DNA of 64,000 bases, from the NCBI GenBank assembly GCA_964019425.1, contig OZ025806.1:682001-746000 (forward strand), given 5' to 3'. The notes under the pieces are model-generated. The model worked only from the letters and a program-made list of their open reading frames with translations, did not search any database and was not told the DNA's origin. How positions within the stretch are numbered: position 1 is the stretch's first letter; every line of letters begins with the position of its first letter. Made by a program: the position numbers and the translations under genes. Positions 19,983 through 40,262 of this stretch are shown here, one piece after another. The stretch is from Flectonema sp. DT1601. Taxonomy: Eukaryota.

Positions 19983-20322
19983 CATTGAAGTCTGAAATAC
20001 TGCTTTATCTCATTCTTTTGAAAGTATTTTATACTGCACTGTGGGATCTTTTATTATTTTTTTAAAAAAAAAAAAAAAAAAACAAAAAAAAAAAAAAAAC
20101 TTTTTTTTTTATCTGTAGTTTTTCCCTAACTAAAAAGTACTTTGTACGAGTATTTCTTTGACCAAACTATTACTGGTTTTTTTTTTTTTACCGAGTGAAA
20201 AAAAAAAAAAATAAACCAAACAAACAAAAGAACATAAATAAATGAGGTAATTTGTTATGAATAACTTTATATATACCTTAACCCAGTAATCGGAATTATC
20301 TACAAACAGAAGAACAAATAAA

Positions 20323-21156
20323 ATGACGTCTGTGTATGTGACAGACTTCCCTTCTTCGTGGAAGACGAAAGACATTTCTGACATGTTCTGCAAGATAGGA
20401 GCCGTTGATAGAGTTGACATGAAGGATGACTACTGCTTTGTGATTTACGATGATAAAAATGATGCGAGTGATGCTGTTAAAGAATTTAATAACTACGACA
20501 CGGGTAGAACTACACTCAAAGTTGAATTAGCCAGAGGAGGTGCGGGTAAATTCAAAACTCCAGACTCGAGTGAATCAAATGTTCTTTTTGTTGTAAACTT
20601 TGATAAGGATGATACTGAAGAAGAAGACATCAGTAATTTCTTCCGTGGCTTCACTCCATCAAGAATTGAGATGTGGAGGGGAGGAAAGGGAATTCGTAAC
20701 AAAAACTTTTGCTTCGTCGAGTTCAACGATGTCAGGACCGCTGCTGATGCTAAGGAGGCGATGGACGGTAAATTCTTAAGAGATCGTCAGATAACTGTTG
20801 AGTTTAAAACTGGTGAAAAAAAACCATCCCGTGGTGGTGGTGGAGGTGGTGGTGGTAGAGGAGGTCGCGACAGAGACAGACAAGACCGCGACAGATACGA
20901 CCGACCAGCTGGAGGAGGTCGTGATAGAGACAGAGATGAAAGACCAAATAGAAGGATTTCACGTGACAGAGGTGATAGAGACTTCGTAAATGATAGAAGC
21001 AGAGACTACGATCGCGGAGACAGATACGATCGCGGTGGTAGAAACGACCGTGACCGCTTCAACAACGACCGTGATAACTACAGCAGACCAAGTGGTGATC
21101 GCAACCGCCGCTACCGCTCCCGTTCAAACGACCGTCCTGCTCGTCGCTCTTACTAA
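20323..21156 (+). CDS. Two-RRM, RD/RS-rich RNA-binding (SR-like) protein
   Basis: RNP motifs SVYVTDF/DYCFVIY and VLFVVNF/NFCFVEF; Gly run then an RD/RS-rich tail. Confidence 0.88.
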   Translation: MTSVYVTDFPSSWKTKDISDMFCKIGAVDRVDMKDDYCFVIYDDKNDASDAVKEFNNYDTGRTTLKVELARGGAGKFKTPDSSESNVLFVVNFDKDDTEEEDISNFFRGFTPSRIEMWRGGKGIRNKNFCFVEFNDVRTAADAKEAMDGKFLRDRQITVEFKTGEKKPSRGGGGGGGGRGGRDRDRQDRDRYDRPAGGGRDRDRDERPNRRISRDRGDRDFVNDRSRDYDRGDRYDRGGRNDRDRFNNDRDNYSRPSGDRNRRYRSRSNDRPARRSY

Positions 21157-21431
21157 GTTGTAAGTTTACCAGTTTCAGCAAACAGATTTATCTTGGGCTC
21201 AACCAAAAGAACAAATAGCTGCAGTTCTCTTGTCAATTTGTTAGCACGTAGCCATTGGAAAAATCTACTTATGTAATAAATAAAAGATCAAGATATCTAA
21301 TTACGTCATAATACTGGAGGCACAGGTCAGGTCTCAGGGATATCTACAGCTTGTCAAAGCTTTGTTCTGTTTGCTGAAAGGTTGAGTTCCTTGTTTGGTG
21401 GGAAAGATGGGAAAAATAACAATGTAAGGGG

Positions 21432-21472
<41 letters not shown>

Positions 21473-21681
21473 AAAACAAAAGACAAGTAATAAAAGAAAG
21501 AAAACATAAAGATGTTGTTGTGGACGAAAGTACACGTACCTGTAAGTGTTGAGTGTCAGCAGATGCCCCGTTTTAAGTTTTTTTAGAAGAATTTTTTTTT
21601 TTCCTTTTTTTTTTTTTCGAGTCTTATTTTTAATCGTATTTTTGTTTTTCTAACCTAACCAGCAATAATAATAAGAAAAAA

Positions 21682-22383
21682 ATGAGAGCAGCCGCGATTA
21701 AATCTATAGTGCAGCCGGGAGCAACAGTAAACAACGTCTTAGCACAAGTGTCGGATCAACTTCCATCACTTGGAAATGGTATTTGGGAAAAATCCGACTA
21801 CAGGAGAGACGATAAGAGAAATGATGAAATATTTTATAAGAAAGCAAGATTCGAACATCACATGCAAGAAGACGGACTTCGTCACCTGTGTGAATACTAC
21901 TCAGCGAATATACCAAATGGGTTAAAACATATTGATGTTTGTTCTTCATTTGATTCTCATTTTAACACATATAAACCAAAATATTGCGTTGGAATCGGTC
22001 TTAACGGAGAAGAACTCGCTAAAAACACTGCGTTGGACTCCTTCACAGTACAAGATTTTAATGCTAACGAAGTAATCCCTTTTAAAGATGATTCTTTTGA
22101 TGTTGCTACTCACGTTGCGTCCATAGAGTATATTGTTAACCCGTTAGTTCATATGGAGCAAGTTCGTAGAGTTCTTGCTCCGTCGTCTACTTGTGTTATT
22201 GCTTTTACTACGAGAGCTTTTTGGACGAAAGCAACTCGGATTTGGAAGCAGTTAGATCACAATCAGCGTGTTGTTTTAGTAGCGTCGTATCTATCTCATG
22301 CTGGTTTTCACGATATAACAGCAGAGGAAATCACACCACCTGGTGTTGATGAGCCAATCGCTGTGGTGTGTGGAAAAGCATAG
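21682..22383 (+). CDS. SAM-dependent methyltransferase (type 11-like)
   Basis: R.D.RNDEIFY..ARF..H, IDVCSSFDSH, GIGLNGEELAKN, PFKDDSFDVATHVASIEY, RRVLAP, RAFWTKA. Confidence 0.88.
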   Translation: MRAAAIKSIVQPGATVNNVLAQVSDQLPSLGNGIWEKSDYRRDDKRNDEIFYKKARFEHHMQEDGLRHLCEYYSANIPNGLKHIDVCSSFDSHFNTYKPKYCVGIGLNGEELAKNTALDSFTVQDFNANEVIPFKDDSFDVATHVASIEYIVNPLVHMEQVRRVLAPSSTCVIAFTTRAFWTKATRIWKQLDHNQRVVLVASYLSHAGFHDITAEEITPPGVDEPIAVVCGKA

Positions 22384-22403
22384 AAACCCCCCCCTAAAAA
22401 AGG

Positions 22404-22558
22404 GTGATGAAGAGAATAGAGGTAGGAGGCATATCGATTGCTCTTGATTTATTATTCTAAGTTGCGCCATCATCCTTAGTCACTGTATCTGAAACTAATG
22501 TTAAATTATCTTTATGTTTTTTTATGATACAACGCGGTTGTAATTTTTACAAAAATTG
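22404..22558 (+). mobile_element. Diverged short 3'-end derivative of the Penelope-like element
   Basis: Aligns to the element's last ~170 nt (tgatga..gagaatagaggta..ctaagttgcg..cttagtcactgtat..aaactaatgttaaattatc). Flanked by near-identical direct repeats aacccccccc(t)aaaaaagg at 22385-22403 and 22559-22576. Confidence 0.85.
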
Positions 22559-22576
22559 AACCCCCCCCAAAAAAGG

Positions 22577-24185
22577 CACCTACAATGGCCCCACCTGCAA
22601 TCCCAACGTTGATGCCAGCAACGATCTCAAAGGTATCACAATTGGAACCTCCGACTGTACATCAAAGTGTGATTCAATCTATGAAAACGATACAATTACC
22701 GATTGTATCACCATTGGATCTGGATCATAATGATGTGGATATGATCGATATGCCGTCACCAGCAACAGTACAACTGGATACGGACACTGACATGGTAATG
22801 GAAACTATGTCACCAGAGACGCAGGAATCACCGGAGCATAGATATGCTGGCTTAATGACTCCATCCAAAGACAGGATGGAGTCACCACCAATAACTCCGA
22901 TTAAGATTAAGACTCCACTGAAAATAAAGACGCCTCTGAAGATCGAAACTCCGACTAAAATAATTCCACAAACCCAACAAGCATGTTGGGATGGAAAGAA
23001 CCTCGAATTAATACGAAGTTTGTCAAAAGAAAGACAGTTGGAGAAAATAGTCACCACATACAGACTAAGATCAACTACACCACAAACAGTAGCCAGGAAG
23101 ATGGAAACACCACCTACTGTAAGCAGTAAAGCCACGAATTCCGGAACAACAATACCGATTACACCACAAAAGGTATCAAGAGTACTAACATACACAGATA
23201 CAGAGAATATCGGTAAAACTTGCAAATATTGCAATAAATCCTGGAAGTCATTTATTGACCATATCAATAAATGTGGAATATTCAGAGCATCAAAAGAATA
23301 TCCAACATATGTTGATGAAGATGATAACACTTCATTTACGGTCACTGAATACAAAACGGATCCTCGAAATAGTATTGTAACTGTTACAAAAGATGAGACA
23401 GAAACTCATATGTTATCTATCAAAAAGAATGGCAAGTTGGCAACACAAACGGTCGCCGATGAACCAGAGAGAAGCAGTAACAAGAGACTGAACTCACAGA
23501 GTCCAATGCGAATTGTGAGAATCAAAAAATACCTGAGCAACCGGAAAAGGCTTAAAAATGAGTGTACTGAACATAAGTTGGCACAGAAAATGAAACTTAA
23601 AGAAGTACAAAAACAGAAATTAGCAAAGGGAAAGGAAAAGAAGAAACTGAAATTGGTAAAAAGACTCAACTCGCAGAGTCCAATGAGACCGATGCTCAGA
23701 AGAAATACTCGAAAGAAAAGAAGCAAACAAGATGAACATGATTCTTCAGATGATATGAGTATTTCACAGAGATCTTCAACTCCAGATATCCCTGATGCTA
23801 AGGAACAATTATCAGACTTTGATAATTAAAAACACTTTCTACATTTATTGTAGAAAAGTGCTCCACTAGTAGTGAGCTACGAACTAGTAACAGCAAAAAA
23901 TATGTTTTTTTATTTATGAACATGAAACACAAAGTAACTACATTCCAGTCCTGCAAACTGGAATGACTCAGTCACAACATTTGACTGACTTACTTCTACA
24001 CCATACTGATGAGAGAGAATAGAGGTAAGAGGTATATGGATTACTCTCGAAACCTATAGTTACTTTAATATGCTAAGTTGCGCATCACCCTTAGTCACTG
24101 TATTTAAAACTAATGTTAAATTATCTTTATGTTTTTATGATACAACACAGTTGTAATTTTTACAAAATCGAACATACATCCCCCC
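22577..24185 (+). repeat. Upstream pseudo-LTR (5'-truncated tandem copy of the element's 3' end)
   Basis: Nearly identical to 30670-32280: about five substitutions and one 1-nt T-run indel seen by eye. Contains ORF 22585-23829, which equals the last 414 aa of the element protein. Confidence 0.95.
24001..24066 (+). ncRNA. Putative hammerhead ribozyme, non-canonical topology (copy 1)
   Basis: CCAUA-CUGAUGA-GAGAG...AGGUA^UAUGG..CUCUC-GAAA-CCU: all core nucleotides are present and stems I, II and III can be paired. Confidence 0.7.
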
Positions 24186-25274
24186 ATCACTCTATGCCCA
24201 GATTTTAGCTTGACTAAAATCCGTTGTGAGTAGAGTACAGTGGTAAGTAACGCAAGAAGACTTACTACAAGTGCAATGCACTTAGGACGTGTATCCATAT
24301 TACGGCATCGTCAATGATGGTTACTATACGTCCAGATGCACAAACTTTTTTGGCAACTTAGCAGCAACAACAGCAGATTAAGTACTATTTATTATAATAA
24401 TATTCCTATTCTTCTTCACTTTAAAATCGGGTGAGTCGCACCACCGTGCTCAGCAGGAGAGGGAGCGAGGGCCCACCAGGGGCTAGTGCCGAAGAGAATA
24501 GGATATATTATTATTTATAAATACACTTACGAATGTATAATCAAATCCGAAAATTGAAAAGGAAAGGAAATGTAGAAATATTTAAGAAAGTGTTTAGTGT
24601 ATGCAGCCCCCTTTTACTTACAATCACAGAGGGTACCGTACAAATTCGATTTTATAATCCAAATCGATAGCTTTAGAATATACCAACCAACAAGGTAGAC
24701 TGCATTAGCTTGGATTCTTTAGTAGGTGCTGAGGCCACGTGATGAACAATCAACCAATTTTATTATACGATAAACCAAAATAAAATAAAATAATGTTAAT
24801 GGAGAAGTCATAAAAAATGAAGCCTATACATCAGTCGATTGATGTAAGTACGTTAAAAAGTCATTGAAAAACAAGGTTCGTAATAGCAATAACACGCACG
24901 CAGACTGACCACTTAATGTACACTCCAAAACCAAATTAATGCGGTGTATGCAACTAGCCAGCAGTAAGATCTTCACCAACAAGCATTGAAAAAACGGGGT
25001 AATGAAATAAGCTGGACATTACGTATATATTTGTATACCGTTAATCTTAGGTAGTATGCTTAATGTAATTAGGTATCATTCTTAGACGCCCAACAAATAG
25101 AAAGCCTCCGAACAACTCGGTAGTTGTAACAAATCTCAAATTAAAACTAAGAAGGATTATAAAGGCTCCCTCTCTTCCCTCCAAAACAACTCAAATAACG
25201 AAAAAACCAAAACACCGGACTGGATCAAGACAAAGGATTTAGATTATACATATAGACCGAAGAGTAGAGTACCA

Positions 25275-28200
25275 ATGTGGTTTGCACAATGGCTAGAAAC
25301 TATTCCAAGGTTTCGAAAAAATTCGAAAAAAGAAGAAAAAAGCAATGGAACTAAAAAGAATGTACCGCAAAGAGTCTCCCAAGGAGCAAAAAGGCACAAA
25401 AAACCGAATCAAAAGGCCCATGATCAAAAGAAATCATACGCGGATATTCTTAAAGGCAAACAAACACATGTAGTTCCGCATGGAAACAGGCAACATGTAA
25501 ACAAACAAGTAGCAAGTAAGCCACGCATTGTTCCGAATAAGATAAAGGAAAAGCAAGTGACACATCAGAAGGTTATCACAGCACCAATTGTCAAAAGTAA
25601 ACCGAAGAGTAAAACTGATAACAATATGATGGTCAGGGCAAAAAATATAAAACCCGGATACGAAAAAAACACAATTAAACGGGGCCGGTCGAACAGACCA
25701 GTTAAAGCTACAGAGAGACAGAAGACGAAGGAACAACCGAAGCCTAAACAAAGGAAAGCTTCGAGTAGAAGTAGATCTAAACCTAAGAATATACAGGTAA
25801 AACTGCAACCTAATACAAAAGGGAGATTGGATCAAACGAACAAAAATTCTAAAAAGAAGAAAAAGGCAAACGAGTTTCAAATAGTACCCGAAAAGGGGAA
25901 GAAAAACAGAAAACCAGTAGTTCATCGCAACAATACTGGCTTCCACAGTGCTGTGTTCAATAGATATGAGATCATTGAACGTGGTGCACGTCGATCAAAA
26001 GATCACGAAGAACAAAGGAGAGAAGCTCTACAAATTTTCAATATAACCCATAAAAAAACATTGGAAGTAGGGCGAAGACATCGACGTATCAGGGAACCTG
26101 TCGACCTTGATTCGGACGAAACAGGAGTAATCTATGCACTCATAGATGAAAAAGGTTCCGCAAGATATGTCGGACAAACCTCCAACACCGCATCACACAG
26201 AGAACGTGGGCATTGGTACTCCCGTCACTCAAAGGGAACAACCATCTCCAAGTTCATTAGAAAAAGAGGAAGTCCTCTATTCGCAGCAACACTGGAAAAA
26301 GTGAACATCTGCAGCAGTTTAATGAAAACTGCATTTCGTACAGCAGCAAATCCGGCAGAATCGTTTTGGATACAGCATCTAAATCCACAAACGAATATGT
26401 TCAGAATGCCAAATAAGGCATATGTCGGAAAGCCACTAAAGACGGGAAGTGAAGTACAAAACCGGAGAATACCGGAAAAACGAGAACCGTCAATCCCAAA
26501 AAAGTGGTATCATTTGGAAGGAGACACTCTGATAGTAGATACTGAACCAGGTAAATACGTTGGTATCAGAAAACAAATACAGAGCCTGATCGACTTACCA
26601 AAGATCAATGAGGATGCTATAGCCAAGTGGTCAATTAATAGAACTCAAAGGTTGCTAGCATGGATCATCGACCATATCCAAGCGTCTCATCAAGAAATTG
26701 ATATCATCAGTCAGATAATCTTAGCACTTAAAGATAGATTATCAGACAAGAAAAAAGATACAGAGACGAAAAGGATATCAAAACTCGGATCAACATGGCT
26801 TAAAATTCGGTTTGTACACCCTTTGATTGAGAAATTGGATCTCAAAAGGGTATTCACATGCAAACAGGCGTTACTCCTCGCCAAAGAACGAGCAGAAATA
26901 CTTCCGACAATGAAAGTGTCAAGATACTTGACAACTAAGTTGGAGGATGTGCTATGTGACCGTGCCAATGATAGTTCAACAGACAACGCACAAGAAGAAC
27001 TATGTGATCCTGAGACATGTAAATGTCATGTATTCATAAAGAAAGAATACAGAGAAGAAGAAAAACATGTGATCACACACTCATCAAAGCTGAATATATC
27101 CAACAGACTTAAGATGTTATTATCGAGAGGTGCTAGATATAGACTCTTTGAGGATCCGAAAACTGTCACGGAAGAAGTAATGTACGCTATAGATGAATAC
27201 ATCATGCATTACTTCCCAGATGAGAAATACGAACCTCTATGTATTTTTTTAAAAAAGGCGGCAAAAAATCAAATCGGAAAGCTACCGCAGATGGATGTTA
27301 TTGATGAATTCAAACAAGTACAGAAGGAACTGAAGGAAATTAAAAAACATTTGATTTTTACCAGAATCGACAAAACGACACACGATCTGGCAGTATGTTG
27401 TAAGAAATACTACAACACAAAACTAAACGAGCACATCGGTAACAGAATTGTGTACGCAGAGGTTCCGAAAGATCAGATAAATCCAACGATGAAAAGGATC
27501 GAAGACATCAACAAGAAACATGGTTTCAGAAATACGGAAAATTTGCCATATTTATATGGAAATCCGAAGATGCATAAAGACCCTCCGAAGTTTAGATTCA
27601 TAGCTGGAACTTCGAACAAAACACTGGATGTCAAATACATCAACTCTAAGGTAATGCCTGCGCCCTTCACAGCCACAACAGACATGTCAAAGGAAATGTC
27701 TGGGATACTTAAGACTTTCATGGAAATAGTTAAAAAAGCTGAAAAAGTGGAATACGAAACAACGAATATAAGAAAGTATTTTATAATTCAGAATGTAGAT
27801 GAAGTTGCACAGTACATCAAAAGCAACTACTCAACTCTCCAACAAATGAAGGTAAAGACATATGATTTCTCAGATATGTACACGAACCTCCCCCATGATA
27901 AGATTAAAAAAGTTATCAACGAATTAATCAGCAAGTACATGGACGGGCAGATAATGGTTAGAGACAAAAGAAGTGGAATTGGTAAAGACTTTTACCTTGA
28001 CAAAAGCTACGATAAAGATGTTCAAGTAGGATACGAAGAGAGCAAAGTTAAAGAATTACTCAGCACGATTCTATCTAATGCTTACATTAAGAATGGAGAA
28101 CTTATGCTCAAACAAAGCCATGGAATACCGATGGGTTCTCAATGCTCACCACATATTGCGAACTTATACTGCTTTGGCATTGAAAAACAATGGGTGGAAA

Positions 28201-31200
28201 ACGTCATTTCACAGAAAGGTATTGGGGCAGCGATAAATAACAAAATCATATTCAGATACATTGATGATTTTTTAATTTTCAGCCACAATGACCCAAGCCC
28301 ACCACCGAGTGAGATGTATAAAATGTCATATACAGATACATCAATGGGCAACAACGATGTAGTATTCCTTGGGATGAGAATCCGGTTGGAAGAAAGGCCG
28401 AGAGGACACCCGTTCGTACGACTTTCAATATGGGATAAAGAAAATCTGTTTAATTTCCAACCCATTAAGTATACCAGTTCGGAATCCAACGCACCGAAAA
28501 GCCTAGGACCAGGTATTCTAAAAGGTGCCATGTACAGAGCCGCTACTAATATCAATAACGATTTCGACTTATACCTTGAAATTGAGAAAGTGCTATACCG
28601 TCTGAGAAGTCGCGGATACTCGAAAAACAGTCTGTTCCCCCAATACAAAGACTTTGTACTGGGTACATACTGGGATTTCCCAAAACAAAGGGAAAGTCTT
28701 CATCATCATTTCTTTGAAATCAATCGGAAATATGACAACGGAAGACCAGTATCGAAAGAAAAACAGACAATCCAACAACATTATAAAGTCAATGGAAGGG
28801 ATGACATTTATAATATGTTGTTGGACAAGAGAATTGGATATGCGAAATTAAGGAGGAATGACAATACATTGGTGACATCATTTAAAATTGCCAGTCAAGC
28901 GATTATTAAAAACAAGAAGGAATGTCAGCAATGCAAAGCTATAATCTCTGACGACACTGAATCACTGGTCAATGATATCAACATTAAATATCACACTGGA
29001 ATATTCAAAACAGCAAAATTCTACAAGGAATTTAAAGAGATATTGCCTATCAATGTCAGTATCCTTTCATACAAAAAGGGTATAACAACTCGAGTAGTAG
29101 TCAACAAAGATAACAATCACGAATGTCACATGTTGATCGGATGTACGGAAGGTGGATTTTTCTTTCCAATTACAGCAAGATACACGGAAAAGGAAATTCA
29201 AAGTCAGCTACTCGAAAAGAAGGATCCAGAAAAATCCGATATCGCTGACAACACGTCGAAAGACTTGAAAGTAGTACAAAAGGAGCAGAAGTCAGAAGAG
29301 TCTGGAAAAACTGAAGTACCAAACGAAGATTATTGGTCCACCTTCATTGATAATAAATTCCCTATTACGATGCACACGCAACCAGCAGAAGGACTTCGTA
29401 GTGGGGAATGTGGCTGGGCAACTGTTAACTTCATAGCAGATCACCTCAAAACTGAAAGAATCAGAATATCAAAGATGTTTAAGATTCAATTCCGACTCGC
29501 AGAGCAAGAGCTTAAGTTAATTGGAGAGAACTTGATGTTCTCATTTAACCCAGATGGTTGGTTTCATCAGATAGTTATTTATGAAACAATAAGAATATAT
29601 CTGGGACTAGAAGTAACACATGTGACAACCCATGAACAGCTGAAAACAATCACAGTAGGTCCAACAGAACAAGAAACTATTGTCATTCCATACATCATAG
29701 TGTCACGTAGAGCAGCCTACACACATTACATCGTCTTTATTGATATAAATTCTAAATACAAGGGATTTGATATAATCAATCCAACTCCAGATTGTAATGG
29801 GATAGAAGATATCATGACGAAGTATCCGTTGAAGGAATACGAATACCACGTTGTAATGAAAACAACGAAAGATATTCCTCCAATAGACTTGTCTGCACTG
29901 GCAATAACAGAGTCACCAGCAAAGGATAATTCCACAACAAAAACTACAGAAGTGGAAATTAAAAAATTCACGGACGAGGAGGATGTAACAGATCTTGAGA
30001 CAATGATTTCGGCAATCGAAAAAGCGGACAAAATGAAGCCCAAATCGACACCGGGAAAAGTCAATAAGATAGAGATAAGGGCCGTATCACCACCAAAGAT
30101 ATGCCAGGATAATATACCGACCCTGTACATATCGCCGATGGTGAAGATACCACCATTACCAGTACTACTATCACCAGTGTTACCAAGACCATCAATAATT
30201 CCAATGACAATACCAATAACGATACCGAAGATAATAAAAATGGAACCTTCGGTAATGCAAAAAATTATATCGCTACCATCAAATAGTTTTCAGAAGACGC
30301 TAGTCACTGTAAATAATGCACTTACGGTAGCCCCACCAGCAATCCCGACATTGATGCCAGCAACGATTTCAAAGGTATCACAATTGGCACCGCCGACTGT
30401 ACTTCAAAAGAAGACACAAGTCATTGCAAATGATGAACTCACACAGGTCCCGCCGATAATTCCAACAATGATACCAACACCAATTACAAATTTATCACAA
30501 TCGACACCGTCAATTGTACTTCAAAAGAATACACAAGTCAGTGCGAGTGATGCACTTACACAGGCCCCGCCGATAATTCCAACGCTGATGCCAGCAAGGA
30601 TTTCAAAAATATCACAATTAGCACCGCCGACTGTAATTCAGAAGAAGACACAAGTTATTGCAAATGAGACACCTACAATGGCCCCACCTGCAATCCCAAC
30701 GTTGATGCCAGCAACGATCTCAAAGGTATCACAATTGGAACCTCCAACTGTACATCAAAGTGTGATTCAATCTATGAAAACGATACAATTACCGATTGTA
30801 TCACCATTGGATCTGGATCATAATGATGTGGATATGATCGATATGCCGTCACCAGCAACAGTACAACTGGATACGGACACTGACATGGTAATGGAAACTA
30901 TGTCACCAGAGACGCAGGAATCACCGGAGCATAGATATGCTGGCGTAATGACTCCATCCAAAGACAGGATGGAGTCACCACCAATAACTCCGATTAAGAT
31001 TAAGACTCCACTGAAAATAAAGACGCCTCTGAAGATCGAAACTCCGACTAAAATAATTCCACAAACCCAACAAGCATGTTGGGATGGAAAGAACCTCGAA
31101 TTAATACGAAGTTTGTCAAAAGAAAGACAGTTGGAGAAAATAGTCACCACATACAGACTAAGATCAACTACACCACAAACAGTAGCCAGGAAGATGGAAA

Positions 31201-31922
31201 CACCACCTACTGTAAGCAGTAAAGCCACGAATTCCGGAACAACAATACCGATTACACCACAAAAGGTATCAAGAGTACTAACATACACAGATACAGAGAA
31301 TATCGGTAAAACTTGCAAATATTGCAATAAATCCTGGAAGTCATTTATTGACCATATCAATAAATGTGGAATATTCAGAGCATCAAAAGAATATCCAACA
31401 TATGTTGATGAAGATGATAACACTTCATTTACGGTCACTGAATACAAAACGGATCCTCGAAATAGTATTGTAACTGTTACAAAAGATGAGACAGAAACTC
31501 ATATGTTATCTATCAAAAAGAATGGCAAGTTGGCAACACAAACGGTCGCTGATGAACCAGAGAGAAGCAGTAACAAGAGACTGAACTCACAGAGTCCAAT
31601 GCGAATTGTGAGAATCAAAAAATACCTGAGCAACCGGAAAAGGCTTAAAAATGAGTGTACTGAACATAAGTTGGCACAGAAAATGAAACTTAAAGAAGTA
31701 CAAAAACAGAAATTAGCAAAGGGAAAGGAAAAGAAGAAACTGAAATTGGTAAAAAGACTCAACTCGCAGAGTCCAATGAGACCGATGCTCAGAAGAAATA
31801 CTCGAAAGAAAAGAAGCAAACAAGATGAACATGATTCTTCAGATGATATGAGTATTTCACAGAGATCTTCAACTCCAGATATCCCTGATGCTAAGGAACA
31901 ATTATCAGACTTTGATAATTAA
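25275..31922 (+). CDS. PLE polyprotein: basic N-terminus, GIY-YIG endonuclease, CxC linker, reverse transcriptase, OTU-like remnant, Josephin-like protease, 39-aa repeats, C2HC zinc finger
   Basis: GVIYALID..ARYVGQT..HRERGH..AESFWIQHL..N (26124-26397); TCKCH (~27015-27029); RT motifs PYLYGNPKMHK..FRFI, TYDFSDMYTNLPH, GIPMGSQCSPHIANLY, FRYIDD (YIDD at 28257-28268), VFLGM; CKYCNKSWKSFIDHINKC. Confidence 0.93.
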   Translation: MWFAQWLETIPRFRKNSKKEEKSNGTKKNVPQRVSQGAKRHKKPNQKAHDQKKSYADILKGKQTHVVPHGNRQHVNKQVASKPRIVPNKIKEKQVTHQKVITAPIVKSKPKSKTDNNMMVRAKNIKPGYEKNTIKRGRSNRPVKATERQKTKEQPKPKQRKASSRSRSKPKNIQVKLQPNTKGRLDQTNKNSKKKKKANEFQIVPEKGKKNRKPVVHRNNTGFHSAVFNRYEIIERGARRSKDHEEQRREALQIFNITHKKTLEVGRRHRRIREPVDLDSDETGVIYALIDEKGSARYVGQTSNTASHRERGHWYSRHSKGTTISKFIRKRGSPLFAATLEKVNICSSLMKTAFRTAANPAESFWIQHLNPQTNMFRMPNKAYVGKPLKTGSEVQNRRIPEKREPSIPKKWYHLEGDTLIVDTEPGKYVGIRKQIQSLIDLPKINEDAIAKWSINRTQRLLAWIIDHIQASHQEIDIISQIILALKDRLSDKKKDTETKRISKLGSTWLKIRFVHPLIEKLDLKRVFTCKQALLLAKERAEILPTMKVSRYLTTKLEDVLCDRANDSSTDNAQEELCDPETCKCHVFIKKEYREEEKHVITHSSKLNISNRLKMLLSRGARYRLFEDPKTVTEEVMYAIDEYIMHYFPDEKYEPLCIFLKKAAKNQIGKLPQMDVIDEFKQVQKELKEIKKHLIFTRIDKTTHDLAVCCKKYYNTKLNEHIGNRIVYAEVPKDQINPTMKRIEDINKKHGFRNTENLPYLYGNPKMHKDPPKFRFIAGTSNKTLDVKYINSKVMPAPFTATTDMSKEMSGILKTFMEIVKKAEKVEYETTNIRKYFIIQNVDEVAQYIKSNYSTLQQMKVKTYDFSDMYTNLPHDKIKKVINELISKYMDGQIMVRDKRSGIGKDFYLDKSYDKDVQVGYEESKVKELLSTILSNAYIKNGELMLKQSHGIPMGSQCSPHIANLYCFGIEKQWVENVISQKGIGAAINNKIIFRYIDDFLIFSHNDPSPPPSEMYKMSYTDTSMGNNDVVFLGMRIRLEERPRGHPFVRLSIWDKENLFNFQPIKYTSSESNAPKSLGPGILKGAMYRAATNINNDFDLYLEIEKVLYRLRSRGYSKNSLFPQYKDFVLGTYWDFPKQRESLHHHFFEINRKYDNGRPVSKEKQTIQQHYKVNGRDDIYNMLLDKRIGYAKLRRNDNTLVTSFKIASQAIIKNKKECQQCKAIISDDTESLVNDINIKYHTGIFKTAKFYKEFKEILPINVSILSYKKGITTRVVVNKDNNHECHMLIGCTEGGFFFPITARYTEKEIQSQLLEKKDPEKSDIADNTSKDLKVVQKEQKSEESGKTEVPNEDYWSTFIDNKFPITMHTQPAEGLRSGECGWATVNFIADHLKTERIRISKMFKIQFRLAEQELKLIGENLMFSFNPDGWFHQIVIYETIRIYLGLEVTHVTTHEQLKTITVGPTEQETIVIPYIIVSRRAAYTHYIVFIDINSKYKGFDIINPTPDCNGIEDIMTKYPLKEYEYHVVMKTTKDIPPIDLSALAITESPAKDNSTTKTTEVEIKKFTDEEDVTDLETMISAIEKADKMKPKSTPGKVNKIEIRAVSPPKICQDNIPTLYISPMVKIPPLPVLLSPVLPRPSIIPMTIPITIPKIIKMEPSVMQKIISLPSNSFQKTLVTVNNALTVAPPAIPTLMPATISKVSQLAPPTVLQKKTQVIANDELTQVPPIIPTMIPTPITNLSQSTPSIVLQKNTQVSASDALTQAPPIIPTLMPARISKISQLAPPTVIQKKTQVIANETPTMAPPAIPTLMPATISKVSQLEPPTVHQSVIQSMKTIQLPIVSPLDLDHNDVDMIDMPSPATVQLDTDTDMVMETMSPETQESPEHRYAGVMTPSKDRMESPPITPIKIKTPLKIKTPLKIETPTKIIPQTQQACWDGKNLELIRSLSKERQLEKIVTTYRLRSTTPQTVARKMETPPTVSSKATNSGTTIPITPQKVSRVLTYTDTENIGKTCKYCNKSWKSFIDHINKCGIFRASKEYPTYVDEDDNTSFTVTEYKTDPRNSIVTVTKDETETHMLSIKKNGKLATQTVADEPERSSNKRLNSQSPMRIVRIKKYLSNRKRLKNECTEHKLAQKMKLKEVQKQKLAKGKEKKKLKLVKRLNSQSPMRPMLRRNTRKKRSKQDEHDSSDDMSISQRSSTPDIPDAKEQLSDFDN
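30315..30760 (+). repeat. About four tandem ~117-nt (39-aa) Pro/Thr-rich repeats inside the PLE ORF
   Basis: Repeated APP(A/I)IPTLMPA(T/R)ISK(V/I)SQL(A/E)PPTV.QK.TQV.A.D/E units. Confidence 0.85.
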
Positions 31923-32280
31923 AAACACTTTCTACATTTATTGTAGAAAAGTGCTCCACTAGTAGTGAGCTACGAACTAGTAACAGCAAAAAATATGTTT
32001 TTTTTATTTATGAACATGAAACACAAAGTAACTACATTCCAGTCCTGCAAACTGGAATGACTCAGTCTCAACATTTGACTGACTTACTTCTACACCATAC
32101 TGATGAGAGAGAATAGAGGTAAGAGGTATATGGATTACTCTCGAAACCTATAGTTACTTTAATATGCTAAGTTGCGCATCACCCTTAGTCACTGTATTTA
32201 AAACTAATGTTAAATTATCTTTATGTTTTTATGATACAACACAGTTGTAATTTTTACAAAATCGAACATACAACCCCCCC
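30670..32280 (+). repeat. Downstream pseudo-LTR / 3' end of the full-length PLE
   Basis: Matches 22577-24185; ends ...atcgaacatacaaccccccc. Confidence 0.95.
32095..32160 (+). ncRNA. Putative hammerhead ribozyme, non-canonical topology (copy 2)
   Basis: Identical to 24001-24066; CUGAUGA at 32100-32106, GAAAC at 32143-32147, predicted cut after A32128. Confidence 0.7.
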
Positions 32281-32374
32281 GAGTGAACTTACTTTTATTT
32301 ATTATCTGCTGGTTTACTTCACTTCGTTCCATACTTTCCGATAGCGATGTCTGTTTAGTTTTTTTTGGTAAGAA

Positions 32375-32574
32375 NNNNNNNNNNNNNNNNNNNNNNNNNN
32401 NNNNNNNNNNNNNNNNNNNNNNNNNNNNNNNNNNNNNNNNNNNNNNNNNNNNNNNNNNNNNNNNNNNNNNNNNNNNNNNNNNNNNNNNNNNNNNNNNNNN
32501 NNNNNNNNNNNNNNNNNNNNNNNNNNNNNNNNNNNNNNNNNNNNNNNNNNNNNNNNNNNNNNNNNNNNNNNNNN
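32375..32574. other. Assembly gap (200 N)
   Basis: Run of N. Confidence 0.99.
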
Positions 32575-34305
32575 CTGCTGCATAAAATCCGGAGCCCAAG
32601 CAGCCAACTCTGTCTAGATCAGCAAAGGAATGTACATCAACTGGAGATGAGTTGTGTGTTAATGTGAGGTGTCCAGTAGATCCGGTCTGCTCAGCTGATT
32701 ACGCAGTAGCTTTGAAGTTTATGCGGAACAAAATATAAAAGACACAATTGAATTATGTCAATGTCTCGGTTCTGAATTTGTTGTTGTGAGAGCCGTTCTC
32801 GCATCTACTACTGCGTTCACAGTACTCAATATAGGAAATGGGAACTCATTTGAAATTAACGGTGATCCTACTACTCGTACTTACCCATACGTCACTTGTG
32901 AGCAACTCGCTAGATGCGAACCACCTTCGGCACTAGACGATGTTTATTATTATAAAACTGTACCACCTAGTTGTACTGCTACTATCGACTGTGCTAAGGG
33001 AAGAGAAGGCCAGGAAGCACTGCTATGTAAACAAACAACATTCATTGATAAAAAAGGGATCACAATGTACACTTGATCAGAGAGATCACTTTTGTGATGC
33101 CGAATTCAGAGCACACACCTGTGCAAGAATGTGATGGCGGCCTTAAACGCGACGATGAAAGTCTGCGCAACAGGGGCAGGTGCGTCGCAGGATTGGAAAA
33201 AAGTGATTGCCAGGGAGGTTACTACTGTCCTGATATTTACGCTGAGCTATCAGATTTGGGTATCCCCGCTCATGAGTCTTGTCTCGTGTGTGAAAAAAAC
33301 AACCCAAATGCATTATGTTGCACAAGAGACGGAAAATCCTTTCCGGTAGTTTCACGTGAAGAGTGCAACGGTCATGGATCACTTCTTTGTTCAGATGTTT
33401 CTTGTGTTACAGAAAGCACCCCAACGGAATGCTCTATCGAAAGTAGTGAGGCAGCAGCACTTCACCTTCAACATCAACAAAGTGTTTGTGGATGTCTAGG
33501 TCTCGGTTATTCTGTCATATATGATCAAGGAACTCCTTACTGCTATGATGACTCAACACTAAAAAAATGGGACGACTACTCAGAAAGAGAACTCGGTAAC
33601 AGAACCTACTCTGTCAGCTGTGAACAGTTAGTTGAGTGTGAGACTCTTTCTGCTCTCGATAAGGCTGAGGTGACGATGTCATTCACTGAACCAATATGCT
33701 CCCCTTATACTGCTTGTAGAATTCGTAGAGCAAGAGAAAAAAAGCTTGCGACCAAGCTCTCAAACGTCTTTGGTGGTTCCAAACAATGCAGCAGCGCTCA
33801 ACGTGACAGCTATGCCGGTCTTGAAACCAACGCTCTTAAGTGTCTATCATGTCCAGGAACTCATAATTTAACGAGTAAGGTTTGTGTATCGAAAACTACT
33901 TGGCCAGCAAGCTGCGAAGAAGCCGCAACAGAAGCAGAGTGTGGGGACTCAGGTTACTTTTGTGCGACATTGTATAAAGACAAGTTTGATAGTTTATCCC
34001 TCTGCACAGCATGCCCAGGAGGTTTAAACCCGGAAACAAACACTTGTGCCACACCAGATGGTCGTTGTATTGTAGGATCTGATGAGGGTAGCTGTTCGGG
34101 AGTCTTCTGCAGAGCAATTTTCGGTGCTGCTTCTAACTATAACGGATTAGATCATGTGCTTGTGGGTGATTCACCTTCTCAGAATATCGGTCCATTCGTC
34201 CTTCTGGCATTCGCTATTATTGTTGTCGCAGTGTTAGTTTATGCAATTTTGACGAAGAGGAAGCAGATTGAAAAAGAAGAGGCACTTGCTCAACAGAATC
34301 AGTAA
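32575..34305 (+). pseudogene. Cys-rich repeat surface/membrane protein, frameshifted (pseudogene or sequence errors), 5' end lost in the gap
   Basis: Internally repeated units (RTYPYVTCEQLARCE..SALD / RTYSVSCEQLVECE..SALD; QCTLDQRD / QCSSAQRD) fall in different frames, implying shifts near 32720, 33030-33060 and 33120. C-terminal TM segment FVLLAFAIIVVAVLVYAIL. Confidence 0.6.
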
Positions 34306-35723
34306 TCGTACGCCGACTTATTTAATTCAGGAATCCATGTGCGCGGTACTCTATCGCACTGCATTGAATCATGTGCCTCACTATTAGGTCACCAACCTGT
34401 TGTCAGAACAATAACAGCATCACGTTGCAAGAGTCGACGTCGATAAATGATGTGATAGTAGTTGTAGTAGTATTTTTTTTTTTTTTTTTTTTTGTACAGT
34501 AAGGCACATACACCCCACCCTGAAAAAAAACAAAAAAAACAAAACAAAAAACAAAATCATCGTTTAGTCATGTGGTTCGAATACACACTATGTCTACCTA
34601 AGTATTAACCCACCCCGTCACTGGATGGCAAATTTATTTTTCCCTTACCAGGAAGATTTTTCTGTGAATTGTGAAAAAAGAAGAGCACAATACTACCGTC
34701 CGGCACAGTTATGACCATAAACTGACTGTCATCTTACCTGATCCTTTTGTTTTCATTTCTTGCTGAGTGACGTGGCTATGTGCTGCCCAATTTTTGTAAT
34801 ACTTTTATAAAGCTTTTCGGTAATCCCACAGTACAATTATAATGCTTTGGGCAACTGGGTGAACGGTCCTCGGTACTGTTCCGGGGGGTTTCTATTTTCT
34901 TTCGTGGTATGTGGGCATCTGGCACATATGGTCGTATTGTAAAGAGAGATATTGTATATGGAATAAAAAAGATTTTTTTTTTGTTTTTTCCACCTTCCAC
35001 CACTCCCAGATCATTTCCATTTTATTTTTTTTAGTTGTTTTCAACCTGTTAGCCTCTGGGCAAAGTGGGAGCTGGGAGTCGATCACTTCCAGCCGAAGCT
35101 ATAAAACTACAATCGTCGTGATTGGGTTCTTACTGATGCGGGATACCCAGACCCCTCGTAGTCATCAGTTCTGTATTTTGCGAACTAACAAACTAACTAA
35201 CAATACAATTAAAAAAAAAAAAGTAAAAAAATAAAAACCCCCGCTAGTAAAAATAATAGTTTGAATAAAAGACGTGGATTACGAAATTAGTTTAGCCATG
35301 TGGTGTGTACGAAATCAACGTGAAAAAAAAAAAAAAATTGAAGAACTTGTCTACTGTTGTTTCCTCCACTGCGATATATAGATATTTATTTGTCCACATG
35401 CCCCGCATACCGTAGGGAAAAAAAGAACCAACGCAGTATAGAAAAGAAAGAAACAATATGTGAAAAGTGTAAAGTGAAGCACCACATCTTTTATTCATTT
35501 GGTCTGACTCCCGTTATCTTGTTTCCCTGCCTTCCACCAAACCCGTAAGTTTTGATTCGATTTGCATGAGTAAATTTTATTTATGTTATTAATGATGGGT
35601 AATTCATTGTTTTATTTATACAGATGAAAAAAGATAATTTTATTTACGAACAGTAATTAAAAAAAAAGAGGTAAGCCACGCGCCTTCTACACTATGAAAT
35701 CATTCTCCCCCTTCAGTTTAATA

Positions 35724-35888
35724 GAGGTAAGAGGTATATGGATTGACTCTCGAAACCTAAATAGTTACTTTAAAAGGCTAAGTTACGCATCACACCTAGT
35801 CACTGTATCTAAAACTAATGTTAAATTATCGTTGATGTTGTTTATGATGCAATACATTTGTATTTTACGTACAAAATCAAACAGTTAA
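35724..35888 (+). mobile_element. Short 3'-end derivative of the PLE with an 18-bp target-site duplication
   Basis: Aligns to the PLE 3' end (gaggtaagaggtatatggatt..ctctcgaaacct..ctagtcactgtat.taaaactaatgttaaattatc). Exact direct repeat tcccccttcagtttaata at 35706-35723 and 35889-35906. Confidence 0.92.
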
Positions 35889-35948
35889 TCCCCCTTCAGT
35901 TTAATATGAAATAATTAATTAGATAGGGAAAGTAATTTGTACTGCACG

Positions 35949-37106
35949 ATGACTGAAACTCTGACAATAACAGAATCGCTGTCGAAGTCGATATCAGAGT
36001 CAGCGTTGGTTAGCCTTTCAGAGACTTTACCAACTGCGAGCTTATCAGAGACGCTACGAACATTAACGTCAACACCGACATCCTCAAAAACAAATACGTT
36101 TTCTTTATCATCAAGTCAGTCTTTATCAGAAACTATTGCACAAGAAGACCTTCGATGGTGTGATTTCTACTTAGGAGACACGCTAATTAGCTGTACGCTG
36201 TTATCATTGTTGGTTGCTGCCGGAGGACTTATTTTAATATTGTGTTGTATCTGTTGCTGTGCTTTGTTTTGTTATAAAAGGAAAAAAGTAACTAAAGATG
36301 GTTCCTATGATGAGATGCTCTTATCAAGTGATAAGGGAAGTAATTCAACGGAAAAGCAAAGAGAAGTTGCTCAAAAACCTCCAGTTCCTCAAGAAGTTGG
36401 TACCAAATCACCAGAGGCGGTTGGTGCGTTTACTAATAATTATCATCCTGTTCAGCAACCTCCTCAGCAAAAGATACCCGGGATCGTAAGAGTTTATGAA
36501 AAAGGAGGAGCAAATGAGGGTGACTACGTTATAAGTTCACTCTCAGTTAACTCCCTTCCAACATGGAAACGGACAGTTCCAACAGAACGGTGGGTTTACA
36601 GTTCACCAGATGGCTTTTGGAGGATAACTGATACTGCGAAAGACTTTGAAACTGGAAAAGGATTTGTCACATCATCGCATCCCCACGGAGGTGAACCACC
36701 AAGCCGCTCTGAGGGTTGGTTTAGTGCAAACGGTCAACCATTAAATATTAATATGACACCTGAGGAATATAAGCAAACCCCCGCAAAACAGTATCACTCT
36801 CCATTTCCTGTTTCAGCTCAACCAGCAGTTACTCCTCCTGTTGTATCTCCCATGCCAGTTATTGCTCCACCTGAAGAGCAATATCAACACTTGTCTCCGT
36901 ATCAACAATATGCTGGTAACAAGTCTTTGACACCTATTCAAAGTAATAATCCAATACTGCCTCCAATTATCCCGTATGAGGCTCCAAAACCATTGTCACC
37001 AGTTGATCATACAACACTTTATAATTTATCGAATTATGATAATGATATCTATCTTCATGACGACAGTGATAGTGAAGAGCCTGATGGGTTCAGAAGAAGG
37101 GCGTAG
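35949..37106 (+). CDS. Single-pass membrane protein: Ser/Thr-rich N-terminus, TM segment with Cys cluster, one W/H-rich beta-type domain, Pro-rich tail
   Basis: TM LLSLLVAAGGLILILCCICCCALFC followed by KRKK; the domain GDY...NSLPTWK..RWVYS.PDGFW.ITD...HGGEPP also recurs in 59045-62638. Confidence 0.7.
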   Translation: MTETLTITESLSKSISESALVSLSETLPTASLSETLRTLTSTPTSSKTNTFSLSSSQSLSETIAQEDLRWCDFYLGDTLISCTLLSLLVAAGGLILILCCICCCALFCYKRKKVTKDGSYDEMLLSSDKGSNSTEKQREVAQKPPVPQEVGTKSPEAVGAFTNNYHPVQQPPQQKIPGIVRVYEKGGANEGDYVISSLSVNSLPTWKRTVPTERWVYSSPDGFWRITDTAKDFETGKGFVTSSHPHGGEPPSRSEGWFSANGQPLNINMTPEEYKQTPAKQYHSPFPVSAQPAVTPPVVSPMPVIAPPEEQYQHLSPYQQYAGNKSLTPIQSNNPILPPIIPYEAPKPLSPVDHTTLYNLSNYDNDIYLHDDSDSEEPDGFRRRA

Positions 37107-38250
37107 TTTTTGAACTGTCTGTCAAAAAATAATAATAGTTGGCGAGCTTAATGGAAATCCCCAGCAGGTAAACTACTTTTTATTGTGATAAAAAGGTATT
37201 TTTAGGTTAATAACATGTTTGAAGTAAAAAAATACTTCTGAGTGCATTATCGTATTGCGTACTCTCTCTTTCTTGATTGTTTTATGAGAGTTATATTCGC
37301 CTTCACAACGGCGCTCGAAGGTGCTTGACTGCACTGTCGATTTGTGAGGGAGAAAAGTTGCTTGGCGTTCTGTTTAACATACGTCGTAAAGAGTTGTTTT
37401 TTGAATTTTTTTTTCCCCCTTTCTTTTTTTATTCAGTTTCATGACCGCTTACTAATTGTTGTCCTTTCAGAGAACGAAGAAAAAAGAAAAGAGAAAGAAA
37501 AAGATTTCCAGCAATTCTTCTCAGGTTGTTCAAGAAAATCAGTTCTTTATGTGTTGTGTCCGTCCCCTCACTCCCCTTTTTTAAAAAAAAAAAAAAATAA
37601 ATAAAAAGCTATTTGATTGACCTTATAAATGAGTTCTGGTGGCTTGGTTAATATTGTCTTAGTCGGCAAAGGAAAAAAATTATTTTGTTTCTTGTGGACC
37701 GGTCGAACGGTCTACTTGATTTTTTATGTGTCTGAAAAATTTGTTTGAATTTGTTATTTGCGGTTAGCATTGTTAAAGATAACGACCGTAGCGTTTTTTA
37801 CTTCATCATACTGTGACAGCTATGCTGGCTAAGCTTCGTCTCGGTGCGGAGCCCCTGAAGAACCTCAGGGAACTTTTAGGGCAGCCACGCTATGCTGAGG
37901 ACAGTCACGGTAGTGGTCTGAAGACTACTCATCGTGCATGGTTTCGTTACACCCGGCCTTTCTATTGTGAGATGTAAAATAATAATTTATTCTAACAAAG
38001 CAACCAAAATAAATAAATAATAAACGACTCCCATTTGGAGCTCTTCTTTTCTTGTTTTTTTTTTTTTTTTTTTTAATCAATCAATTTTAGAATACAAATA
38101 CATCACACATAATCGTGTCGTGTTCCCTAATTTTTAGGTTAAAAGTTTGTTAGTTTGTTAGTACCTCTTAACAACTTCATTACAAACAGAACGTCAATGG
38201 TCAAGGAGTTCAATTTTATTTCTCCCGATATGTGAAGCACGTCTAATTTT

Positions 38251-38284
38251 GTTGCGTGTTAACCTTGATTTATTTATCCAAGTC
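38251..38284. repeat. Short dispersed repeat (pair at 16600-16638)
   Basis: gttgcgtgttaaccttgatttatttatccaagtc. Confidence 0.65.
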
Positions 38285-38585
38285 CCCACCCTTCTTTTTT
38301 TATTTATGTACTCATCTTTTCTTCTGAGGTTGGGTTAAGTTGCTAGAGCTTGTTTCGAGGAATGATAACAGAGAGTTGATTATTTGTTAAGGTTTTAGTT
38401 TTCTCTTCACGGTCTTCGAGAAAGTGTGTTTTTTTTTTTTTGTTGGATGTTATTATTTTTTTCTTTTTTCATGTCTGTTTTCTGAAACTAAAACTCATAT
38501 TTCTTAACCAAAATAATTTCGCTGTAGAGTTTTGTTGGGATCGTATTTAAAAATTATTTTTCCAACAGCTACACACAACCCAACC

Positions 38586-39578
38586 ATGGCAGACTGGTCT
38601 CCGTTTCCCCGCCTTACTGGCAATGAAAAGAAAATTGTACTAGCAGGTGATAGCGTATTGGATAATTTTATTTGGCTGAAAGACCCGTCGGTAAATCTCC
38701 GAGTTGTCATGGAGAGGATGCTGCAGAGGGAAGCAAGCGATACGATTTGTTTGAATTTCGCAGTTGATCAAACCATGACGTTTGACTTTATTAGAAGAAC
38801 AAGAAAAAGTAACTCCTGGATGGGATATCAACATGAGCGTGAACGAATGTGTAAAGCACTTCACAATGATTCTCTGGACAGAGATGGGTACAAACATTTA
38901 TGTTCTGCTGATGGGTCAATCAAATCGGTCGACAATATCGCTCGTCTTAAAAACGTAAAACACATTTTCTTAAGTGTCGGAGGTAACGATGTTTACCTTC
39001 GCGCAGATGTTCAAAAGAAATTAGCCAGTTCACTAATGGGTTGTAATGGAAGACATGAAGTTGGTAAAGAATTTAAGGAAAGATTAAATACTATTGTAGT
39101 CGAATTAAAAAAAGTAATTTCATCAGATACACTAATCACACCAGTCATTGTGTATCATCCTCACTACGATCAATCACTGTCAGGATTGAGTCCTAACACT
39201 TGTCTAGGGTCAGTAAGTATTAGTATTCAGAAAATGTTTTTATCGTGGTTGGTAACCCCGATGGTTCGATCTGTACTTGAGGTTTGTTCTCAACATTCCT
39301 TATCAGCAATTGACTTGTCTCAAACATTTGATCCAACAAACATTCGACATTACGGTAATATGAAACACCCAGAAGCACCTTGGAATTGGAGTGGTGCAGA
39401 ACCGAGTGACGTGAGTCAAATTTTTATCGCAAAACTGATGATGCATGTTGTCAACCACCCACCAACAGCACCGACAATATTTCATGGAAAGACTAAAGGA
39501 GATGATTTTGTTTCTGTTGTTCCGACTCTCATTACGGAGAGCGTTTTGAAAAACTATAAATTTCGCACCGGCGTTTAA
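38586..39578 (+). CDS. SGNH/GDSL-like hydrolase
   Basis: Block I IVLAGDSVLDN, block III FLSVGGND; EPS appears in place of the canonical DxxH; ATG at 38586. Confidence 0.75.
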   Translation: MADWSPFPRLTGNEKKIVLAGDSVLDNFIWLKDPSVNLRVVMERMLQREASDTICLNFAVDQTMTFDFIRRTRKSNSWMGYQHERERMCKALHNDSLDRDGYKHLCSADGSIKSVDNIARLKNVKHIFLSVGGNDVYLRADVQKKLASSLMGCNGRHEVGKEFKERLNTIVVELKKVISSDTLITPVIVYHPHYDQSLSGLSPNTCLGSVSISIQKMFLSWLVTPMVRSVLEVCSQHSLSAIDLSQTFDPTNIRHYGNMKHPEAPWNWSGAEPSDVSQIFIAKLMMHVVNHPPTAPTIFHGKTKGDDFVSVVPTLITESVLKNYKFRTGV

Positions 39579-40262
39579 CCGTCTCAACTGCGAAAATATT
39601 TCCTTTTTTTTTTTTTTCATTTTTCTTTTCAAAAGAAACTTGTACCTACAAAACCATATTGAGACTGGCAGCTAGTGCGGATTCCAAAAATTAAAAAAAA
39701 AAAAAAAGAGCGAAAAGAACAAACCTAATTCCTCCCTAACTCGTTGTGATTACTTCAACACATGCTGGTATAATTATTTTTGCTTTTCTTTGTAAGTTGG
39801 AATTCTATCTGAGAAAACTGGTAGTCCTTAAAAGTATTGGCCATGTACAGGTTGCTTCCTGTTGTGGTTCTGCTCCAAACTTTCACACACGTCAGGTATA
39901 ATGGTTTTCTACAGTTGCATTTCTTTCCTACGTTTCTGTGATTTGTCTTCGTGGTATCAGTTTCTATCTCCCTGAATGACGAGTTTCAAATAATAAAAAA
40001 AGAACAAGCCGACAACGTGATAACATAGTTATTGCGTTCTATTTCTCTCGGTGATTAGTACACAATTTCCAGATTGCGATTTGTATTTCGGAAGAGTTAA
40101 GTTAAAAAAAAGCAATGTTCCCTATCCTTTTTGTTGATATTCTTTTTTTTTTTTTTTTTTTTTGGTTTTATGTTAACCTAACCAACGAACCAAAAAATAA
40201 CAACAAAACTGTTTAGTTTAGAACGTACGTTATCATCTTACCAGTAACCAACATAAATAAAT

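Follow-up and report, generated by a model that had tools for sequence, protein, structure and literature searches.

A candidate type-CSG hammerhead ribozyme in the pseudo-LTRs of a Chlamys-like retroelement from a likely diplonemid

Hammerhead ribozymes were reportedly described by Cervera and de la Pena in 2014 in the pseudo-LTRs of canonical Penelope-like elements (PLEs). The locus considered here raises the question of whether a PLE with an N-terminal endonuclease also carries a hammerhead, with its parts in another order, and what self-cleavage would do for such an element. We analysed a window of 64,000 nucleotides of contig OZ025806.1 (Flectonema sp. DT1601), in which a preliminary description had pointed to the words of a hammerhead core in both pseudo-LTRs of one element. 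The motif emerges as a strongly supported candidate for a hammerhead of type CSG, lying in a Chlamys-like element whose host is likely a diplonemid.

The element and its host

The window holds one full unit of the element, 8094 nt long and ending in a C-run (24186-32279, + strand). Upstream of it lies a 5′-truncated copy, the pseudo-LTR (22577-24185, +), which likewise ends in a C-run and matches 30670-32279 with five internal differences; because the copies differ at these positions, we thought it unlikely that the pseudo-LTR is an assembly duplication. The element thus shows a partial tandem, 5′ truncation and C-run targets. A 200-N assembly gap (32375-32574) begins 95 nt past the element's 3′ end and could hide more element sequence.

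The element's open reading frame spans 2273 amino acids from stop to stop (25101-31922, +; first ATG at 25275) and ends 176 nt upstream of the CUGAUGA block. N-terminal to the reverse transcriptase (RT), it contains a GIY-YIG-like motif near 26127-26180 (amino acids 343-360), and the R, H, E and N residues of the endonuclease can be read by eye; there is no CxxC in the first 1250 amino acids, and the CCHH finger is also absent. A CxC motif (CKC at amino acid 640, position 27018) and a DK motif (DKT at amino acid 757, position 27369) both precede the RT, which lies at 27708-28289 (Pfam RVT_1, E 2.3e-7). Between RT motifs A and B, the Insertion-in-fingers region, there are 86 amino acids, as measured in the window's frame alone. 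The C-terminus is long and repetitive; this part of the frame includes a 117-nt coding tandem repeat (30292-30759), within which the upstream truncated copy begins. The likeness to Chlamys features suggests a Chlamys-like PLE with an N-terminal GIY-YIG endonuclease. A Naiad identity was rejected, as the endonuclease is missing both the CxxC linker and the CCHH finger. The comparison of copies and the motifs of the frame agree with the preliminary description in placing the hammerhead words in both pseudo-LTRs of an N-terminal-endonuclease PLE.

The closest named RTs to that of the element are from Diplonema papillatum (35-38% identity) and Lacrimia. For one host gene in the window, the best named matches are diplonemids at 61-63%, ahead of kinetoplastids at 55-58%, and for this reason we take the host to be a euglenozoan, and likely a diplonemid. 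The host frames with Pfam matches all lie uninterrupted on the + strand, the same strand as the element and all four copies of the ribozyme region, and genes of Diplonema papillatum are arranged in likely co-transcribed clusters (PMC10161547). In that species, N-terminal-endonuclease PLE proteins fall into at least two families (P0003-P0012, P0047, P0051), several of its PLE proteins are annotated as fusions to host genes, and the word 'Penelope' is absent from the main text of its genome paper (PMC10161547). A search of the literature, subscription papers and bioRxiv supplements aside, found no description of PLEs in diplonemids. Two further repeats lie in the window. An intergenic motif of ~45 nt follows poly-T tracts on the + strand at ~51430, ~51797, ~55166 and ~63862; its four copies (family D15) share 75-87% identity and may be a short repeat or an RNA-processing signal. 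A 21-nt coding tandem repeat (47840-48600) sits inside a frame at 47533-50796 that has no Pfam match.

Block order and a fourth helix

Our descriptor covered all six orders of three blocks. In block C, CUGANGA follows a strand of stem I and precedes one of stem II; in block G, GAAA follows a strand of stem II and precedes one of stem III; and in block S, UH follows a strand of stem III and precedes one of stem I. On both strands of the window, with stems of at least 4 bp, the only sites it returned are the two pseudo-LTR motifs, and in both copies the blocks run C-S-G from 5′ to 3′. This is type CSG, a non-circular permutation of the hammerhead. Eckert, Friedrich, Weinberg and Weinberg named the six block orders in 2023 and found type CSG in two unique soil-metagenome sequences (PMC10085705). 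The preliminary description was right that the order falls outside types I, II and III; that order had already been published as type CSG (PMC10085705).

The hammerhead core is present at 24001-24055 and at 32095-32149 (+), 8094 nt apart, and the two ribozyme copies are identical. Word positions, the six-order descriptor and folding together define a whole four-helix motif at 23989-24055 in copy 1 and at 32083-32149 in copy 2 (both +). In copy 1, block C (24001-24017, +) consists of the 5′ strand of stem I (24001-05), CUGAUGA (24006-12) and the 5′ strand of stem II (24013-17); block S (24030-24039, +) of a stem III strand (24030-33), A17 (24034) and the 3′ strand of stem I (24035-39); and block G (24044-24055, +) of the 3′ strand of stem II (24044-48), GAAA (24049-52) and the other strand of stem III (24052-55). 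Stems I-III measure 5, 5 and 4 bp, all Watson-Crick, and adjoin the core. The conserved core is complete, with CUGAUGA, G24013-C24048 (G10.1-C11.1), GAAA, A24052-U24033 (A15.1-U16.1) and A24034 (H17). By analogy with other hammerheads we predict a cut 3′ of A17, that is, after A24034 in copy 1 and A32128 in copy 2, at a GUA triplet. Each of the words listed in the preliminary description is where it was said to be, in copy 1 and again 8094 nt downstream, and its stems, triplet and cut-site assignment hold by position.

A fourth helix, P0, is found both by the descriptor and by nested folding. Its strands, 23989-23998 and 24020-24029 (+), form 10 bp with one G-U, and the 3′ strand runs into stem III with no linker. 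P0 is the most stable helix of the motif, with a duplex energy of -10.4 kcal/mol compared with -3.2, -4.9 and -2.5 for stems I-III, and in nested folding at three window sizes its pair probability is 0.92-1.0, with 0.56-0.97 for stem III; stems I and II cross the P0 and stem III helices and are beyond scoring by such a program. The segment that had been read as a linker is therefore a strand of P0, and because its partner is 23989-23998 the motif starts at 23989. A proposed extension of stem III (24025-28 with 24060-63) shares bases with P0 and has a pair probability of 0.00 against 0.92-1.0, and we do not retain it. Stems I (5 bp) and III (4 bp) are weaker than in most other CSG examples. Immediately 5′ of the P0 strand, two strong hairpins of 9 and 7 bp (23941-23988) may insulate the folding of the ribozyme; one of the five differences between copies falls in the loop of the second.

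How often would such an arrangement arise by chance? We made 4,471 dinucleotide shuffles of the window, amounting to 570 Mb over both strands; in them the order CSG appeared three times with stems of 4/4/4 and not once at 5/5/4, where any block order at all appeared four times. Given the core, a 10-bp P0 at any position, with G-U pairs free, occurred in 1,726 of 100,000 random upstream 29-mers (1.7%). A 10-bp P0 ending 5-7 nt before CUGANGA, a positional limit picked after the other examples were known, occurred in 704 of 300,000 random upstream sequences, and with at most one G-U in 43 of 300,000. These P0 counts are upper bounds, because the draws include real sequence. The canonical type I, II or III hammerhead, including the minimal PLE form, was ruled out, as the circular block order that it requires is absent: no circular three-way-junction order was found in the window at stems of 4/4/4, on the minus strand of the whole element at 4/3/3, or in 24186-25400 at 3/3/3. 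Searching 20000-40000 against Rfam with E up to 5 gave nine weak matches, none of them a hammerhead, as expected from the earlier suggestion that standard models miss the motif.

Recurrence in copies and relatives

Two short 3′-end copies lie near the element. The copy at 35720-35894 (+), flanked by 18-nt direct repeats (35706-35723 and 35889-35906), belongs to a sister subfamily and is 87% identical to copy 1. The preliminary description had placed this diverged copy at 35724; the words that it quoted are kept, but the copy is 5′-truncated and does not include the CUGAUGA block, or any of block C. None of its 32 paired or core positions is changed, compared with 19 events at 135 other positions (Fisher p = 0.013), and of its two nearby insertions one falls in a linker and one just past stem III. 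The pattern points to selection for the fold in a sister subfamily. The other copy (22405-22554, +), between C-rich direct repeats (22385-22394 and 22559-22568), is decayed, with block G partly deleted, and has no bias towards paired or core positions (6 of 43 changed, and 10 of 118 elsewhere). Both have their start 13-28 nt upstream of the predicted cut rather than at the cut itself; they were therefore copied from RNA continuous across the cut site, and no genomic scar of cleavage is seen at this locus. The 3′ end of the element itself lies 150 nt beyond the predicted cut.

For the metagenome scan we used a degenerate pattern in which the core, two pairs of stem I and the spacing were kept constant; being biased to one stem I sequence, it samples part of the family only. 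Five of its 64 loci (L079, L086, L087, L105 and L141, comprising three distinct sequences) fold as CSG with a P0 of 11-14 bp, and when the free positions of all 64 matches were shuffled as a control, 7 of 96,000 passed the CSG and P0 fold. The geometry is shared by the window and all five loci, with P0 ending 6-7 nt ahead of CUGANGA and H17 placed 14-16 nt ahead of GAAA. L105, L141 and L079 have an imperfect stem I, in which 3 bp are followed by a mismatch. Four of the five lie 437-863 nt downstream of a Naiad-type PLE frame on the same strand, with a Naiad-type endonuclease in L086 and L141; the fifth, L079, has no PLE protein match and is 97% identical to L141 over 139 nt. The nine PLE proteins tried match none of the remaining 59 loci. 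With the same or a looser pattern, none of 78 viral loci (from scans that gave 76 and 2) and none of 41 prokaryote loci folds as CSG at stems of 3/4/4. Among the 183 pattern loci of all three kinds, the CSG layout thus recurs only behind related frames. Searches seeded with proteins gave 55 and 19 viral pattern matches and 252 in metagenomes, with no confirmed relatives among them. These scans also met ordinary type I hammerheads in two viral loci, L019 and L052 (stems 6/5/6 and 5/5/5), and a candidate in type III order with a long span in L122 (1324-1371, - strand; stems 6/4/6).

In a quick RT tree of 47 rows (SH-aLRT only, midpoint root, rows drawn from outside the named reference families), the window element is placed with diplonemid proteins (a group of 19 rows, support 100), apart from a 15-row Naiad-type group (100) in which L086 and L141 occupy different subgroups; the endonuclease labels come from our own regular expressions, and one of them conflicts with where it sits in the tree.

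The consensus sequences of Craig et al. 2021 (File S5 of PMC8557442) offer a second sample; here the Naiad ends were read by eye and the helices counted manually, independently of any descriptor run. By this reading, all eight nematode Naiad consensuses in the metadata end in C-S-G with four helices. The lengths of P0 and stems I-III come to 11/6/5/12 bp in Naiad_Parc and, with one U-A to U-G change, in the record before it, taken from the order of the table as Naiad_Ppac; 13/5/5/11 in 1_Nbra, 13/5/5/6 in 2_Nbra and 9/5/4/6 in 3_Nbra; 15/6/5/10 in Hcon and 16/5/5/9 in Hpol; and 10/4/5/6 plus 4 bp in Asuum, which has one extra U after CUGACGA. Stem sequences vary among these families, and the triplets, again by eye, are GUC or GUU. 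Four helices are thus kept with differing sequences in the three distinct metagenomic Naiad RNAs and in the eight nematode consensuses, the latter by eye and all of them unaligned: the four distinct CSG RNAs are too distant for MAFFT, and their pairs were tabulated by coordinate.

In Naiads, canonical hammerheads are absent according to Craig et al., who conclude that most Naiad and Chlamys elements lack them and are not hindered by it (PMC8557442). The authors flag eight Naiad families as 'HHR_half_core', with core halves 35-50 nt apart, a label that goes unexplained there (PMC8557442). It covers three of the nematode families that we read as CSG (Parc, 3_Nbra and Hpol), and the spacing of the core halves in the window, 36 nt, is inside the same range. 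In Acropora and other cnidarian Naiad ends in File S5, GAAAC lies upstream of CUGAUGA, an order other than CSG; by eye, no CSG was seen in the Limulus and Parasteatoda Naiad ends, nor among the Chlamys passages listed from 8-letter searches, which line-broken motifs escape. The window is the only Chlamys-type case of CSG found in this analysis. The expectation that N-terminal-endonuclease PLEs use a permuted form thus holds in part: CSG is seen in the Naiad-type metagenome loci and the eight nematode Naiads but not in the cnidarian Naiads or those Chlamys passages.

Cleavage, rival readings and known systems

CSG-1 and CSG-2, the published examples, cleave at the predicted site during transcription in constructs of 77-78 nt, at 0.004 and 0.026 per min, and their alignment includes a further helix, formed by a strand immediately 5′ of stem I and the stretch that separates stem II from block S (PMC10085705). 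Their four-helix identity with the window motif, the chance counts and the recurrence behind PLE frames support a self-cleaving CSG reading. It is very likely that the fold has been selected for self-cleavage in this element family. We consider it likely that the 3′ UTR of the element contains a CSG hammerhead that works as one pseudoknotted molecule and that cuts after A24034 and A32128 likely free an 8,094-nt RNA from a likely read-through transcript; the exact window sequence would probably cleave as a monomer in vitro. P0 and stem III would form first, holding blocks C, S and G, and stems I and II would then close the core within one molecule. A read-through transcript of the host would include both copies, and the two cuts would free 24035-32128, an RNA carrying the entire frame together with the 3′ tail and the 5′ region. 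Because the DNA extends 150 nt past the cut and the short copies span it, the template for reverse transcription must have been uncut or re-joined at the cut site. Retrozyme RNA is ligated into circles (PMC7761336), and the chances seem even that the freed RNA is ligated in the same way and that reverse transcription from the C-run end, continuing for more than one round, gives a truncated copy before a full one. An uncut linear transcript with slow cleavage fits the data equally well as a circle.

Several other readings would account for parts of these observations. The preliminary description held that the core needs either a pseudoknotted monomer or cleavage in trans; the monomer is the form that we favour, and cleavage between copies is unnecessary, because single CSG constructs of 77-78 nt cleave during transcription (PMC10085705). 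A core that works only as a dimer or in trans, with two RNAs or tandem copies exchanging strands, would suit the short stems I and III and the partial tandem, and minimal PLE hammerheads may cleave as dimers (PMC7761336). However, P0 ties blocks C and S together intramolecularly and is kept in every example seen, and the two copies are 8 kb apart; together with the behaviour of the published constructs, this makes such exchange quite improbable. An accidental origin of the motif, from hammerhead words and stretches of complementarity in an A+T-rich UTR, is extremely improbable: the words are short, the two full copies are not independent and Rfam, with E up to 5, reports no hammerhead, but the shuffles, 570 Mb of them, contain no CSG instance at the observed stem lengths, the fourth helix is exactly where the published CSG RNAs carry one, and the layout recurs behind related frames and nowhere else among the 183 pattern loci.

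A further reading accepts the ancestry of the motif and disputes its use: it would descend from a working ribozyme that is now slow or dead, or its cleavage would merely trim or destabilise the 3′ end, unrelated to release of a unit-length template. The short copies that span the predicted cut, the DNA 3′ end 150 nt downstream of it, the low published CSG rates (PMC10085705) and the many Naiads that multiply without the CSG form all point this way. Yet neither young copy has lost a core base or any of the four helices, paired positions are kept in the sister subfamily, and the position after the frame recurs in both halves of the N-terminal-endonuclease tree, and on balance we regard this reading as improbable. 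Self-cleavage by one pseudoknotted molecule remains our preferred reading. A broader proposal, tentative and in our judgement rather unlikely, is that CSG is an old, clade-wide 3′ ribozyme of N-terminal-endonuclease PLEs in a euglenozoan and animals, which would give circles, then rolling-circle reverse transcription and pseudo-LTRs; the soil CSG sequences would be Naiad ends from soil animals, and retroelements the main home of the type.

The CSG order was already known; its place in PLEs of a protist, of nematodes and in other Naiads was not found in print. No link of CSG to PLEs was found in literature since 2021, subscription papers and bioRxiv supplements aside, and in the literature searched the term 'type-CSG' was found only in PMC10085705. 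Eckert et al. graded the biological relevance of CSG as less well supported than that of type SGC, because covariation was modest and there were two similar sequences of unknown origin (PMC10085705). With the window, the three distinct metagenomic RNAs and the eight nematode consensuses, CSG would number about a dozen examples with different stems and gain a genomic home. A hidden permuted ribozyme would overturn the no-hammerhead view of Craig et al. for part of Naiad and Chlamys, and would explain some of the 'half core' labels. CSG RNAs also offer constructs for probing the role of PLE hammerheads, a question left open by reviews, and strongly paired natural ones suit structure work. Taken alone, the ribozyme adds one more case to a rare type already known; within PLEs, it is a fresh form.

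The window motif shares with CSG-1 and CSG-2 the order C-S-G, the conserved core bases, stems I-III, the fourth helix (in the layout given in the Fig. S10 text) and a linker of 4 nt that joins stem I to stem II, and its length is 67 nt compared with 66. The published RNAs come from soil metagenomic DNA, as two unique sequences (five in all) that are assigned to no host or element, whereas the window motif sits in a eukaryotic retroelement, has different sequences in all stems and is predicted from its fold to cleave. It also differs in having GUA instead of GUC, a stem III of 4 bp and a P0 that runs linkerless into stem III. Like the hammerheads of canonical PLEs, it is in the 3′ region and thus in both pseudo-LTRs, one unit apart; those hammerheads are of type I, are often minimal, without helix III, and may cleave as dimers (PMC7761336, PMC8557442, bioRxiv 10.64898/2026.07.22.740005), whereas the window has a full non-circular permutation with a fourth helix. 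The element resembles Chlamys (PMC8557442) in its N-terminal GIY-YIG without CxxC or CCHH, its CxC and DK motifs, its long repeat-bearing frame, its partial tandem and its C-run targets. Reports of Chlamys come from green algae, spike mosses and a slime mould, and most of these elements have no canonical hammerhead (PMC8557442); here the host is a euglenozoan and a candidate CSG hammerhead is present. Finally, the proposed freeing of element RNA from a longer host transcript recalls the self-cleaving ribozymes of R2 and L1Tc (PMC7761336). These are mostly HDV-like and lie at the 5′ end of LINE-type elements, whereas the 3′ hammerhead of the window would act on the 5′ side only by way of a tandem copy.
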